From the sequence record MT446410.1: a stretch of 64,000 nt of DNA. The stretch is one strand, 5' to 3'. A program made the translations under genes and the position numbers. Below, piece after piece: positions 46,044 through 55,815 of the stretch (its first letter is position 1; each line of letters begins with the position of its first letter). The DNA is from Escherichia virus TH38. The notes beneath the pieces are model-generated. The model saw nothing but the letters and a program-made list of their open reading frames with translations. It was not told where the DNA came from and searched no databases.

Positions 46044-46247
46044 TTAGTAGAACGAACGAATTTCATCCCACACTTGTTCCTGTTCTTTCCTATAAAAAGA
46101 AAGTTGGGTCTTGAACATCTCCACTGATGATTCAAAGTTTTTAGATTGTGCAGCTTCAACGAAACGTTCATGTCGATTGATTTTGCACCGTAGCATTAAA
46201 TACTTGGCTTCAAGTCTCCGAAGAGCCTGTCTTTTCTCAAGATTCAC
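46044..46247 (-). CDS. hypothetical protein
   Basis: 67-aa helical basic ORF. Confidence 0.35.
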   Translation of the reverse strand: MNLEKRQALRRLEAKYLMLRCKINRHERFVEAAQSKNFESSVEMFKTQLSFYRKEQEQVWDEIRSFY

Positions 46248-46656
46248 TTTTCAGATACTCTGACCAGTCGCCAGATTCAACCAGAACATCTTGTTCTTCG
46301 TCGATATGATAAATCCAAGCGATAACAGTTTCACCTGAGTCCAGCTTAACGGCAATCTGAGTACGCTGATAGAAGCTGTCTTCAGGGCTACGTTTATTGT
46401 AACCTTCCAGACGGTCATACGGACCTTCCAGACCTGCTTTGTCAGTAGCAAACACTTCTACACGAACAGGCTTATTGTTATTGCTGTGTGCGAGAGAGAT
46501 GCTCGGGAAGTAGGAACCACCGTAACGGAACAGATCAAAGTTGTCTTCAGTCCAACCTTCACCAATTGACTTAGCACCAGCTCGATCATTAACTAAATAG
46601 TTAGCTTGACCACGACGAAGAGAACCATAAGTTGCTACGTAAATTACTTCTGACAT
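46237..46656 (-). CDS. gamma-glutamyl cyclotransferase-like protein (GGCT/AIG2 fold)
   Basis: N-terminal VATYGSLRRG motif and size typical of GGCT-fold enzymes. Confidence 0.6.
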   Translation of the reverse strand: MSEVIYVATYGSLRRGQANYLVNDRAGAKSIGEGWTEDNFDLFRYGGSYFPSISLAHSNNNKPVRVEVFATDKAGLEGPYDRLEGYNKRSPEDSFYQRTQIAVKLDSGETVIAWIYHIDEEQDVLVESGDWSEYLKSES

Positions 46657-46657
46657 T

Positions 46658-46867
46658 TTAAATACCTTTCCAGTCTTTCATGATGTTTTCAATGTAAGCA
46701 CACTGCTGATCAGTTGCTCCTGTTACAAACACTTCTAACCCCAACTGCTCACAGAAGGGATTAAGAATCAATATTCTGGTTTGCCCATATGAGTGATGCT
46801 CTCGGTAGATAACACACCCAGCATCCCATACAGAATCAATGGCTTTACTTAATCTTTCATGTTTCAT
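46658..46867 (-). CDS. hypothetical protein
   Basis: 69-aa ORF with RBS ggagg. Confidence 0.4.
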   Translation of the reverse strand: MKHERLSKAIDSVWDAGCVIYREHHSYGQTRILILNPFCEQLGLEVFVTGATDQQCAYIENIMKDWKGI

Positions 46868-46920
46868 AAAACCTCCAGTTTATCCGAACTAGCCTCCTCT
46901 TTCGAAGAGGCTAAAGCAGA

Positions 46921-47106
46921 TTACTCTGTAATAAAGATTTTAATCACACCACAGATTGCTGCACTCTCAAACACTGCAACGGCTTCACTTCCTTGAAAGA
47001 AGGCCACTTTGCCATCAGAGAAGTTAAACATGTCAGCATCGAGGTCCATAGCTCGCATCTCACCAGCTGCATTGGTATCTTTAAACAGAACTTTATACTT
47101 ATTCAC
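46921..47106 (-). CDS. hypothetical protein
   Basis: 61-aa ORF. Confidence 0.35.
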   Translation of the reverse strand: MNKYKVLFKDTNAAGEMRAMDLDADMFNFSDGKVAFFQGSEAVAVFESAAICGVIKIFITE

Positions 47107-52831: not shown

Positions 52832-52840
52832 GATAACCTC

Positions 52841-53647
52841 TTATGCTACCTGAAGGAGTTTGATCTGCTGGTCCGCTTCTTTAACGTTGTTGCCGTTAAT
52901 GATTTCATGAAGCTTCTCAATCGGAAGGCGAGAGTGCAATGCCATCAGAGTGGACATATCACACTGCTGAACAACCTTGTCAACCTGATCGTAAACAAAC
53001 TTACGGTTTTCACGATCACTAATCCAGAAGTTAGACAGTGAACGGTATTCAATACCATAGTCTTTATAACGGATTGCAGAAGCTTTGCCGTACAGTTCTT
53101 TACGGCGAGTATCTTTATCCATAATAACTGCTGGGAGTGACAGGAAGTAGTCACACAGCACACCCAGCATCATCTGAGTTTGCAAAGTGATATCCAAAGC
53201 ACCAACTACGCCAAGATGTACGTGACCACCGGCAGTACGAAGCCCTTTATTCTGAGAAGTCGGGGATGGATTCTTCTGACCAGTGAAAGCGTTAAAATCA
53301 GGAGTGCATCCGAAGATGAACGCTGATTCATTGAAAGTCTTCATCTCTTCTTCAGTGAAGATGTGAGAGCTAACACCCGGAGCTGTTTCCATGTCCAGTT
53401 TGTTCAGGACATTGTTGGTGAGATCGATACCACGTTGCATGTTATCGTTAAACGCTTCAAAACCGCTCTGTGGGTCAATATCAAACTCAGCCAGTACATT
53501 GTCCTCTTGAAGACGAACATCCTTAGCCAGAGTGATCTTATCATCCTTAGAACAACCTAACAGACCAGCTACAGAGGTGATAATACCATTACTGGTACGA
53601 ACAAACATTTCAGGGTCAGAGCCGATAAGGAATTTGCGCTTAGTCAT
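52841..53647 (-). CDS. possible second amidoligase-like protein
   Basis: N-terminal FLIGSDPEMF resembles G-x-E-x-E strand; otherwise unassigned. Confidence 0.3.
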   Translation of the reverse strand: MTKRKFLIGSDPEMFVRTSNGIITSVAGLLGCSKDDKITLAKDVRLQEDNVLAEFDIDPQSGFEAFNDNMQRGIDLTNNVLNKLDMETAPGVSSHIFTEEEMKTFNESAFIFGCTPDFNAFTGQKNPSPTSQNKGLRTAGGHVHLGVVGALDITLQTQMMLGVLCDYFLSLPAVIMDKDTRRKELYGKASAIRYKDYGIEYRSLSNFWISDRENRKFVYDQVDKVVQQCDMSTLMALHSRLPIEKLHEIINGNNVKEADQQIKLLQVA

Positions 53648-54611
53648 TGTAATACTCCACTAGTTCAGAAAAGAGAGATGAGATTGTGTTACCAACTTCT
53701 TCAAGAGTAAGACCGGAATCTGCTCCAGTTCTTTGAATCAGTCGGGCTGTAAAGTTTTGTACTGTAATGTTTCCCAACTTGTCGTCTATTGCTTCACGTT
53801 TGTGACCATAACAGTTGGACCAGAGTCTTAACCACTCTGACATTGTTTCATACTCGTCCGGGTCTTGATCTTTAGCACGAGCAAATCTTCGTAAGGCATC
53901 TTGGTTATGGTTACGAACATAACCGTTCTCGTTGTCGCCAACACCGAAGGGGTTTTGAACCCATACTTGCTTCGTGTATTCATCAGAGTCTACAACCAAA
54001 GGAAGGAATGCTGCTGCTGACATATTGTTGTTAATAACAATAGAGGTGCTCTCACTACTCCCATTGGCTCTTCCTCGTTGAGACCATCCACCGAAGAAGT
54101 CACGACCCAACCCAGCTAACACTAGAGCGATGCCGATGCGTTTACGCTTCAGCCACTCTTCCCTGTCTTCAATTCCTTCTGCTAGGAAATCCATTCCACG
54201 ATATTGCCCTTCCAGAATACTACGAAAGAGCATAAGTCCTGTGAAGATCTGATCTGCTGGATGCTCACGAAGGTTGACAGCAACACTATTCGCTGAAGTG
54301 ATCGTAAATACGTTACGATAGCAAGACATAGAGTTCATAACGTCTGCTGTTTCAACCAACCTCTCTTCAATATCAGATGTATCATAACCGTGAAAAGAGT
54401 GAGTCCAGTAATTCAACATCTCCAGCTGCAAGTTGATATCACGGTTGAAGCGTCTCCAACGCCCATCTTCCGAGATAACTTCACCATTAATGTCATTTAC
54501 ACACTGGCCTTGCATGTAGTTGTGGATACCGAAGCACCCACGACCTAAGAACTTCTGTTCCCCTAAATCCTGTTGAAGATTAAGAGGTACGATCGTTGTG
54601 GAGATTGACAT
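53640..54611 (-). CDS. hypothetical protein in ligase operon
   Basis: 323-aa ORF. Confidence 0.4.
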   Translation of the reverse strand: MSISTTIVPLNLQQDLGEQKFLGRGCFGIHNYMQGQCVNDINGEVISEDGRWRRFNRDINLQLEMLNYWTHSFHGYDTSDIEERLVETADVMNSMSCYRNVFTITSANSVAVNLREHPADQIFTGLMLFRSILEGQYRGMDFLAEGIEDREEWLKRKRIGIALVLAGLGRDFFGGWSQRGRANGSSESTSIVINNNMSAAAFLPLVVDSDEYTKQVWVQNPFGVGDNENGYVRNHNQDALRRFARAKDQDPDEYETMSEWLRLWSNCYGHKREAIDDKLGNITVQNFTARLIQRTGADSGLTLEEVGNTISSLFSELVEYYND

Positions 54612-54621
54612 AACTAACCTT

Positions 54622-55815
54622 TTATTTTCCTAAAAATAATCCGCTCATAACACCATCCCACTCAGAGGATGGAATCACTGAATACTCCGAACTTTGGTCC
54701 AGAGTTCCGCTACTGAATCGCTGAACAATATTATAAATATTGAACATATCTTTAGTCTCAGCGCGATAAGCGTAGACTAATCTGTCAGCTGTTCTTTCAT
54801 CTTTAGATACCCGACGAGCAAAGGTAACCAGAAGGTTGTCACCTTTGAGTATTTCTGACTCATCTTTTACTAGATCAGGGTGCATAACCGGCAAGAACAT
54901 TGAGTTGTTCACTCGTAACTCTGCTGTTTCGTCGTTCTCATAATGAATCCACTTAAAATCTTCATCACGAAAGTGACCGCATCCATCTCTGTATGACTGT
55001 TGACGCCAAGGAACTTGAAATGCTTCAGCGTATTTATCAGCCATGCCGACTGTAAACAGCGACGCTGGGAAGATACAAGCATCCCAATCGTTACCAACCA
55101 GAGTTGCTTTCGTTTCCCCTAAGAGGTTAGTGTAAGTACTAACCATTCGTGAGTAAACGTAAGCCTGAAGAATTGTCCAGCCTTCAACCAACCATTTATG
55201 GAGGAAGGTTTCAACTTGACTCTCTTCATCTTCACAATAGAAGGTTCGGTCTAACATCAAATAGAACAGACAGCGATCAGCAGGGATGTTCTCAGTTGCT
55301 ACCCCCATAAAACCTTTTTCGTGCCAGCGTAAACAGGAGGGACGATCTTTGTCCACAAATGCTTCCATAGCTTCCAGTACAGCACGAGGTGTGGTTCGAT
55401 GTTCAGGGTTTTTGTCGTTCCAATGTTCGATGTTATTTTTAAGCTCGCCTTCGTAATCAATAGCACCCCAACCTAAAGCTGCGGATACAGGTTTTTCGTC
55501 ACGCCAACGTCTAAAACCTAACATCTTCATGTGAGTTCCGGAGTTCCAGATATGCTTGATTTTACACATATCCATCTCTCTGCTTAGCAGGAACTCTTCC
55601 CCATCAGCACTACGAACGTTAGCTTCTTCGTGCCACACTCGAACGTGCATATTCCATCCATGAGTTGCCTCATACATGTTAGGGTCGAAGTATTCATCTT
55701 CGTCATCATCTTCATCAACGCCACCATTATAGTTGCGAAGTTGAAGGAACCCATAACAAGGAGGGTTGACCGTTAAAACATTACCTTCAGTATCTTCTAA
55801 TGTTACTGGAAACAT
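54622..55815 (-). CDS. hypothetical protein in ligase operon
   Basis: 397-aa ORF, first large gene of operon. Confidence 0.4.
   Translation of the reverse strand: MFPVTLEDTEGNVLTVNPPCYGFLQLRNYNGGVDEDDDEDEYFDPNMYEATHGWNMHVRVWHEEANVRSADGEEFLLSREMDMCKIKHIWNSGTHMKMLGFRRWRDEKPVSAALGWGAIDYEGELKNNIEHWNDKNPEHRTTPRAVLEAMEAFVDKDRPSCLRWHEKGFMGVATENIPADRCLFYLMLDRTFYCEDEESQVETFLHKWLVEGWTILQAYVYSRMVSTYTNLLGETKATLVGNDWDACIFPASLFTVGMADKYAEAFQVPWRQQSYRDGCGHFRDEDFKWIHYENDETAELRVNNSMFLPVMHPDLVKDESEILKGDNLLVTFARRVSKDERTADRLVYAYRAETKDMFNIYNIVQRFSSGTLDQSSEYSVIPSSEWDGVMSGLFLGK

Follow-up and report, generated by a model that had tools for sequence, protein, structure and literature searches.

A phage-restricted gene cassette for candidate glutamyl amide-bond chemistry in Escherichia virus TH38

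Results

A known cassette of amide-bond enzymes

We analysed a stretch of 64,000 nucleotides from Escherichia virus TH38 (MT446410.1, hereafter the window), in which a minus-strand block at 46237-55815 encodes two glutamine synthetase (GS)-like ligases, an ATP-grasp ligase, a class-II glutamine amidotransferase (GAT-II) and a gamma-glutamyl(amine) cyclotransferase. This region is the phiEco32-type amidoligase cassette, already known and catalogued since 2009. Its genes are co-conserved far beyond chance: of 50,697 phage records, about 300 have all four core enzymes, and these represent at least four phage lineages. Because every recognisable enzyme of the cassette handles glutamyl or gamma-glutamyl amide bonds, we tentatively propose that it is a phage-exclusive enzymatic assembly line, performing such chemistry on an amine- or carboxylate-bearing substrate. 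To the known system, the present analysis adds a universal partner protein of ~200 amino acids (aa), a zinc-ribbon tail on GAT-II, an ATT start codon, phage restriction and co-occurrence counts.

A megablast search with positions 44000-58000 matched 99 phage records, 64 of which align over 80% or more of the query with ~94-98% identity. All of these relatives are phiEco32-like podoviruses of E. coli or Shigella, such as ES17, SU10, NJ01, Paul and LorandFenyves_Bas91. The window is a Kuravirus sequence, ~95% identical to ES17, SU10, Bas91 and NJ01. Because it also matches PF14395, the cassette is the very system for which that family is named. GenBank records of the relatives name the same genes: glutamine amidotransferase, ATP-grasp enzyme, amidoligase, COOH.NH2 ligase and gamma-glutamyl cyclotransferase. 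The novelty that an earlier note on this DNA had implied is therefore lost, since the cassette was described in phiEco32 in 2009, gave PF14395 its name and is annotated in many Kuravirus records. According to later papers, that description was computational and is due to Iyer, Abhiman, Burroughs and Aravind (Mol Biosyst 2009; PMC10580990; PMC11318856). The same authors are credited with the prediction that the phiEco32 amidoligase and glutamine amidotransferase alter the cell wall and block superinfection, or yield a secondary metabolite (PMC10580990; PMC11318856; PMC11706807). As far as the citing papers go, nothing material distinguishes the phiEco32 system (PF14395, PF12224) from the cassette studied here.

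The genes were described in the earlier note as a co-directional minus-strand operon with overlaps, and this stands: every open reading frame (ORF) named there lies on that strand as listed below, closely packed and with tight junctions. Neighbours overlap by 4 nt (52214-52217), 8 nt (53640-53647), 20 nt (48768-48787) and 4 nt (47103-47106). All other junctions are gaps of 1-11 nt, with the sole exception of a 79-nt leader ahead of the GAT-II gene. From first gene to last, the cassette and its downstream neighbour read:

54622-55815, minus: 397-aa protein, first large gene of the cassette (phrog_13063; Gordonclarkvirinae only)
53640-54611, minus: 323-aa protein (no family match)
52841-53647, minus: carboxylate-amine ligase resembling GS and gamma-glutamylcysteine synthetase (GCS), "phiEco32-like COOH-NH2 ligase type 2" (PF14395, phrog_3815), hereafter type-2 ligase
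52214-52831, minus: 205-aa partner protein, directly after the type-2 ligase in every lineage examined
51114-52217, minus: GS-like Amidoligase_2 (PF12224, phrog_7469)
51035-51113, minus: GAT-II leader with two hairpins and an upstream ORF (from sequence and conservation)
49004-51034, minus: GAT-II domain (aa 1-~230) with a ~440-aa tail and an ATT start (GATase_6)
48768-49001, minus: 77-aa DUF7195 protein (PF23825)
48563-48787, minus: 74-aa protein (phrog_13464)
47358-48560, minus: RimK-like ATP-grasp ligase (aa ~1-270) with a C-terminal extension (phrog_2599, phrog_20552)
46658-47351, minus: three lineage-specific filler ORFs of 82, 61 and 69 aa, separating the GGACT gene from the ATP-grasp gene
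46237-46656, minus: gamma-glutamyl(amine) cyclotransferase of GGACT/AIG2 type (PF06094, phrog_2520)
44227-46017, minus: primase/helicase, conserved downstream neighbour outside the cassette (annotation of relatives)

Hence, both GS-like ligase types, an ATP-grasp enzyme, a GAT-II and an AIG2/GGCT protein stand in one co-directional block. The same enzyme block is present in PaP3, Privateer, TC6 and phiM6.

The cassette genes travel together and are restricted to phages

Phage distribution was assessed by tblastn against the 50,697 records. The type-2 ligase was matched in 306 of them, Amidoligase_2 in 301, the ATP-grasp enzyme in 313 and the GAT-II domain in 334. Counts per host genus are near-identical across the four queries (Pseudomonas 120-121, Escherichia 92-93, Proteus 8, Salmonella 7, Cronobacter 6). 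The conserved order is two ~300-aa proteins, type-2 ligase, ~200-aa protein, Amidoligase_2, GAT-II, small ORF(s), ATP-grasp and GGCT. It is maintained in PaP3 (Bruynoghevirus) and Privateer (Grimontviridae) and rearranged in part in TC6 (Zobellviridae), Sinorhizobium phage phiM6, Vibrio phage V07 and Leptolyngbya phage Lbo-JY46. The core block recurs in phiM6 and V07; Lbo-JY46 has the same enzyme classes in a different order. Overall, scattering of the genes in related genomes, an outcome that the earlier note had named as damaging to its proposal, was not seen; they are co-conserved in order across lineages.

The cassette usually lies directly upstream of the primase/helicase gene, and this neighbour is found again in PaP3, TC6, phiM6 and metagenomic contigs. 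In addition, some relatives carry an extra class-I GATase/C26 "gamma-glutamyl hydrolase" or a second GGCT, which reinforces the gamma-glutamyl theme. In PaP3 microarrays, ORF32-48 belong to the middle class, a set that comprises the replication genes as well as orf42-48, which encode the cassette enzymes (PMC4707531).

Outside phage records, the type-2 ligase is extremely rare, with only 22 loci in 100,044 prokaryotic species genomes (one genome per species). Nearly all of these loci lie on contigs of ~50 kb or less from metagenome-assembled genomes (MAGs) or on tiny scaffolds, and one lies on a 96-kb MAG contig. Most of the contigs long enough to judge hold the same gene set, and several also hold the primase/helicase. 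The type-2 ligase thus occurs only on phage-like contigs, and the cassette is therefore phage-exclusive and not borrowed from hosts. The analysis thus shows the enzyme families, their intact catalytic motifs to the extent given below, strict co-occurrence and synteny, confinement to phages and, for the PaP3 orthologues, expression in the middle phase.

Two minor points concern single loci. The isolate assembly of the actinobacterium Herbiconiux daphne contains three tiny scaffolds (537-1119 bp) with a type-2 ligase that shares 47-64% identity with its E. coli phage counterpart; they are most likely phage or contaminant DNA. In Lbo-JY46 (locus positions 3754-7963), PncB-like and PrsA-like genes stand immediately upstream of the cassette copy, a pair which we take to resemble the phage NAD+ reconstitution pathway that counters NAD-depleting defence.

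Ligases, cyclotransferase and small ORFs

The earlier note had recognised a GGCT-fold protein, a GATase-II domain, an amidoligase-like protein and a possible second amidoligase. All four score above Pfam cut-offs, and profile searches did not assign the ORFs to unrelated folds. Amidoligase_2 matches PF12224 (33.6 bits against a cut-off of 22) and phrog_7469 (9e-159), and carries the alternating-Glu metal-binding strand GIELELEG at residues ~28-35. The type-2 ligase matches PF14395 (34.1 bits against a cut-off of 25) and phrog_3815 (3e-118). Its N-terminal G-x-D-P-E motif is present (IGSDPEMF), and its invariant residues G9, D11, E13, H142, H144, R182, R193, K195, E200 and R202 are shared with six other phage lineages. 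A profile search of PDB sequences found no solved-structure relative of this ligase.

The ATP-grasp enzyme matches phrog_2599 at 7e-186 and phrog_20552 over aa 319-400, and has a C-terminal extension of 130 aa. Its Privateer orthologue, 41% identical, exceeds the Pfam RimK cut-off (33.7 against 21 bits). The ATP-grasp assignment made in the earlier note holds. The E-x-N Mg/ATP motif, WVLEVNTAPG, aligns with FLEVNTAPG of the D-Ala-D-Ala ligase 4eg0 and also with RimK structures. RimK, LysX, MptN and CofF share the ATP-grasp fold and the E-x-N motif with the phage enzyme and are its best profile matches. However, it is not an equivalog of any of them, because its scores stay below the cut-offs (Pfam RimK, 16 bits against 21; rimK_fam, 27 against 143, 2e-6; MptN, 31 against 350, 1e-7; Ddl also below) and because of the C-terminal extension. 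The nearest named relatives in NCBIfam, MptN and RimK, are all glutamate ligases.

The cyclotransferase matches PF06094 (63.8 bits against a cut-off of 22.8) and phrog_2520 (1e-44). Its closest structures are PH0828, mouse GGACT and human GGACT, and its YGSLRRG motif aligns with YGTLRKG of PH0828 and YGTLKRG of mouse GGACT. The candidate catalytic Glu lies in RLEGY (residues ~82-86), beyond residue 77 where the PDB alignments end.

Among the small ORFs, the 77-aa protein belongs to DUF7195 (PF23825, 61.9 bits) and has a homologue in Privateer gp088; the profile search of PDB sequences returned no relative of it. The 74-aa protein falls in phrog_13464 and is weakly similar (E 0.34) to PaP3 orf44, a small ORF at the same position. 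The earlier note had suggested that these two ~75-aa proteins could be substrates or carriers. Their reading as tags or carriers was rejected on their C-termini, …KLKGI and …VKSGS, which are unlike those of known tags and carriers, having no Gly-Gly, no GGQ/GGE (Pup) and no acidic EDWGE (LysW) tail; in addition, one of the two is a DUF7195 protein. Nor did any cassette ORF match a Pup_ligase or LysW family in Pfam or NCBIfam. The 82-, 61- and 69-aa fillers have no Pfam match; they are absent in PaP3, whose ATP-grasp and GGCT genes directly adjoin.

GAT-II has an ATT start, a conserved leader and a zinc-ribbon tail

The N-terminal ~200 of the 676 residues of GAT-II, and only these, match GATase_6 in Pfam (55 bits against a cut-off of 27). 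In NCBIfam the matches are to N-domains of GlmS, PurF, AsnB and EgtC (EgtC, 2.5e-4), with all equivalog models far below cut-off. When aligned with the GlmS structure 1xff, R86 and N111-G112 of the phage protein correspond to GlmS R73 and N98-G99. In addition, the Asp of EVDSEN aligns with the Asp of the GlmS ETDTE motif, which we take to be D123. The residues of the pocket for glutamine or a gamma-glutamyl group are thus intact.

No ATG, GTG or TTG precedes the catalytic Cys in this frame, which reads stop-AAA-ATT-TGT-GGC, coordinate 51034 being the ATT. The Cys stands at position 2, the class-II criterion, only if translation initiates at this ATT. The coordinates of the gene in the earlier note were correct, and the non-canonical start was glossed over there. 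ATT-TGT is retained in MLP3 and in Aeromonas phage BUCT695, and ATG-TGT is found in Privateer, PaP3, TC6, V07 and phiM6. The annotated BUCT695 coding sequence begins 10 codons too late and so is without the catalytic Cys.

The leader contains a 9-codon upstream ORF (51067-51038, MKGFTLQVD*) whose stop lies 3 nt before the ATT start, and the Shine-Dalgarno sequence AGGTGG is located inside it. Across 98 phage records, leader and start (51032-51113) share 84-100% nucleotide identity; in BUCT695, a phage of another family, the value is 88.6%. This conservation suggests translational control. The fold z-score of the leader is only -1.37.

The tail of GAT-II carries three zinc-ribbon-like CxxC…CxxC motifs, and at least a terminal CxxC is kept in the orthologues of PaP3, TC6, phiM6, V07 and Privateer. 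Residues 236-676 have no match in Pfam or NCBIfam and correspond to no known type of acceptor (synthase) domain. An exhaustive HMMER search of 1.84 billion representatives returned 12 relatives of the tail, plus one spurious repeat protein. The same GAT-II fusion is present in all four of the relatives scanned with Pfam; in the others it was judged from the position of the match.

A universal 205-aa partner and two proteins without family

The three large proteins left without function in the earlier note (205, 323 and 397 aa) indeed have no match in Pfam, NCBIfam, PADLOC or PDB sequences, and PADLOC gave no defence-system relatives. The 205-aa protein is a universal member of the cassette. 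Iterative searches with hidden Markov models (HMMs) linked it to Privateer gp091 and PaP3 orf47. Its positional counterparts in 12 lineages have invariant R106, G111, P138 and G165, a near-invariant K160, and a shared basic loop, R-x-P-x-R-x-x-(K/Q)-G-L. This loop was left unmodelled in the AlphaFold2 (AF2) model of the protein (pLDDT 74), and structure prediction gave no usable fold assignment for the 205-aa or the 323-aa protein.

The 397-aa protein (phrog_13063) was found by tblastn in 97 phage records, all of them Escherichia or Shigella Kuravirus-like, and many Cys, His, Asp and Arg residues are invariant across 17 homologues. A profile search of PDB sequences found no relative of this protein or of the 323-aa protein. 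With Foldseek, the 323-aa model weakly resembles uncharacterized proteins of ~290-320 aa, two each in Cronobacter GAP52 and Aeromonas LAh_8. A local PAD..F..LML.R motif shared by the 323- and 397-aa proteins (HPADQIFTGLMLFRS and IPADRCLFYLMLDRT) prompted the idea that they are paralogues, which hhalign rejected. Comparison of both proteins by hhalign with their positional counterparts in PaP3, Privateer, TC6, phiM6, V07 and Lbo-JY46 gave no significant match, the best being E 0.005 over 45 columns with Privateer gp093. No informative domain fusions were seen among larger orthologues.

A proposed glutamyl assembly line

In the assembly line that we propose, both GS-like ligases would use ATP to activate a carboxylate, probably in the form of an acyl phosphate, and couple it to an amine. 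The RimK-like ATP-grasp enzyme would then extend a terminal carboxylate by another amino acid, L-glutamate being the most plausible one. GAT-II may supply glutamine-derived ammonia to a ligase-activated carboxylate, or may cleave a gamma-glutamyl amide as EgtC does. Finally, the GGACT protein would strip the gamma-glutamyl group as 5-oxoproline and free the amine. Scaffold or specificity roles could fall to the ~200-aa protein, the variable upstream proteins and the GAT-II zinc-ribbon tail. The product would be a low-molecular-weight or carrier-tethered compound resembling a gamma-glutamyl amine or peptide, and gamma-glutamyl would serve to activate or protect, as it does in the butirosin and Puu pathways. 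We infer the order of the steps, glutamate as the building block and the nature of substrate and product; the caveat of the earlier note, that the product cannot be read from the sequence, holds. The substrate is probably not bulk phage DNA.

PuuA/PuuD, BtrJ/BtrG, GCL/GshB/GGCT and EgtA/EgtC pair these same enzyme classes. In the butirosin pathway, a gamma-glutamyl group is added and later removed as 5-oxoproline. The likeness to butirosin (ATP-grasp BtrJ, carrier BtrI, cyclotransferase BtrG) lies in the ATP-grasp ligase and the cyclotransferase of AIG2/GGACT type. Unlike butirosin, the phage cassette is without an acyl-carrier protein, a pyridoxal-phosphate-dependent decarboxylase and an acyltransferase, and has two GS-like ligases and a GAT-II. 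PuuA/PuuD and EgtA/EgtC likewise combine a GS/GCS-like ligase with a glutamine-amidotransferase-like hydrolase that later removes gamma-glutamyl. However, the phage scores are far below the cut-offs of these families, the cassette has no oxidases, methyltransferases or sulfoxide synthases, and its ligases form their own families.

Several points weigh against this proposal. No substrate, product or activity has been observed, and our literature search found no experimental study of the cassette. Glutamate specificity of the ATP-grasp enzyme is a guess, because the RimK and MptN matches fall far below the family cut-offs. Devoting 12-18% of the genome to a small molecule has no evident rationale in lytic phages. 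The cassette occupies ~12% of a Kuravirus genome, and the PaP3 equivalent takes up roughly 8 kb of 45.5 kb. Its carriers include phages under development for therapy against E. coli and Pseudomonas. Solving the cassette would define a phage-only enzymatic pathway and might explain the indifference of Kuravirus to restriction systems.

Alternative explanations

The main rival to the assembly line, which we consider rather unlikely, is protein modification. Here, the ligases would modify a host or phage protein with glutamate, oligoglutamate or a short peptide, at the C-terminus in the manner of RimK or on lysine in the manner of PafA. GAT-II would function as an amidase or deamidase, while gamma-glutamyl-lysine remnants would be recycled by GGACT. 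The ATP-grasp enzyme does belong to the RimK clade, and PafA, the Pup ligase, is itself GS-like. Recognition of a macromolecule is suggested by the zinc ribbons and by the SH3/Tudor-like look of the 205-aa partner. The upstream proteins, which evolve fast, could act as targets or as adaptors. The natural substrate of GGACT is gamma-glutamyl-epsilon-lysine, which fits a recycling role; yet enzymes of this family are not known to act on intact proteins. Moreover, the cassette ORFs gave no Pup-, ubiquitin- or LysW-like tag, given the C-termini of the small ORFs described above, and no Pup_ligase or other tagging family was matched.

DNA or nucleotide hypermodification, in which a base of the phage DNA would be decorated with an amino-acid-derived group, is improbable in our judgement, and among the three products considered in the earlier note (metabolite, protein tag, nucleic-acid modification) it is the least favoured. 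It would account for the marked resistance of Gordonclarkvirinae to restriction-modification (RM) systems, a BASEL observation. The cassette always adjoins replication genes, and in PaP3 it is co-expressed with them. EcoRV (38 sites) and HindIII (32 sites) are not avoided in the window, and the EcoRV sites retained over the 64 kb speak for this explanation. On the other hand, palindromic hexamers are strongly avoided, with 635 observed against 1070 expected in positions 1-64000 and 16 of the 64 absent, including the PstI, SacI, NcoI, SphI, SmaI and StuI sites. CCWGG is present just 4 times, and there is also a depletion of GATC. Such depletion is expected of phage DNA that is exposed to restriction.

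A further argument comes from phage tf, whose type-2 ligase is a match of 39.8% identity and which encodes an amidoligase and a glutamine amidotransferase (PMC3517423). Its DNA was cut by RsaI, HpaI, EcoRV, SmaI and HaeIII and was sequenced natively (PMC3517423). The thymidine hypermodification systems (5-hydroxymethyldeoxyuridine (5-hmdU) kinase and aGPT-Pplase; PMC8989533) are likewise phage-encoded, linked to replication and based on amino-acid-derived chemistry. However, none of their defining enzymes is annotated: at the level of annotation, the near-identical complete Bas91 genome has no ThyA-like hydroxymethylase, 5-hmdU kinase or aGPT-Pplase. ThyX makes ordinary dTMP and, together with dCTP deaminase and thioredoxin, constitutes an ordinary dTTP-boosting set. 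No DNA-binding or base-flipping fold was detected.

A related idea is that the cassette installs a covalent modification responsible for the RM resistance of Gordonclarkvirinae, either on a subset of sites in the phage DNA or on a DNA-shielding protein of phage or host. The phage-exclusive ~200-aa partner and the zinc-ribbon GAT-II would then be targeting subunits. We regard this as speculative, with only a small chance of being correct; if true, it would be a new biochemical anti-restriction route common to about 300 sequenced phages.

Remodelling of the cell envelope seems very unlikely. A peptidoglycan or surface-polymer precursor would be altered in the cytoplasm, so that competing phages could not adsorb (superinfection exclusion). 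Amide ligases and amidotransferases such as MurT/GatD do modify peptidoglycan stem peptides. Yet the carriers are strictly lytic with short cycles, the genes are co-expressed with replication and not at the very start of infection, and the cassette is without membrane, secretion or Mur-ligase components. The hosts of the carriers (Enterobacteria, Pseudomonas, Vibrio, Sinorhizobium and a cyanobacterium) also have different surface receptors. Later papers nonetheless give this effect as the original prediction (PMC10580990; PMC11318856).

An auxiliary nitrogen or redox metabolism, either a gamma-glutamyl-cycle analogue making or recycling a glutathione-like peptide or a mobilisation of glutamine and glutamate for nucleotide synthesis, has an equally slight probability: the enzymes match the gamma-glutamyl cycle one to one (GCS-like ligase, ATP-grasp synthetase, N-terminal nucleophile (Ntn) hydrolase, GGCT) and thioredoxin, ThyX and dCTP deaminase are encoded nearby, but hosts already possess such pathways, the type-2 ligase and the GAT-II tail are without cellular counterparts, unlike auxiliary metabolic genes copied from hosts, and the GlmS, PurF, AsnB, RimK and MptN equivalog matches are all far below cut-off.

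Expression signals and neighbouring genes

A phiEco32 middle-promoter motif (TAATGTATA) matched 19 times against 18.6 expected and was dropped for lack of enrichment. A scan for sigma-70 promoters was not above background. Positions 44000-59000 contain 22 terminator-like hairpins, compared with 9.6 +/- 3.4 in shuffled sequence. A good terminator candidate at 56388-56371 (minus strand) overlaps a TTGACT promoter-like box, just upstream of two ORFs of 50 and 120 aa that lead into the cassette.

A nucleotide-metabolism block lies at 38587-42303 on the minus strand:

38587-39243, minus: ThyX (148 bits), the only thymidylate synthase
39212-39682, minus: HNH endonuclease inserted beside ThyX
39669-39947, minus: thioredoxin
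40196-40807, minus: ferritin-like-domain protein, annotated as DNA-binding in relatives
41770-42303, minus: dCTP deaminase

The next gene (42313-43731, minus strand) is a "nucleotidyltransferase" in relatives, which the BASEL paper took as a hint of DNA modification. It has a weak match, below threshold (E 0.0025), to the PolyA_pol head domain of CCA-adding/poly(A) polymerase type. An alternative role for this protein is tRNA repair, as the phage carries tRNA.

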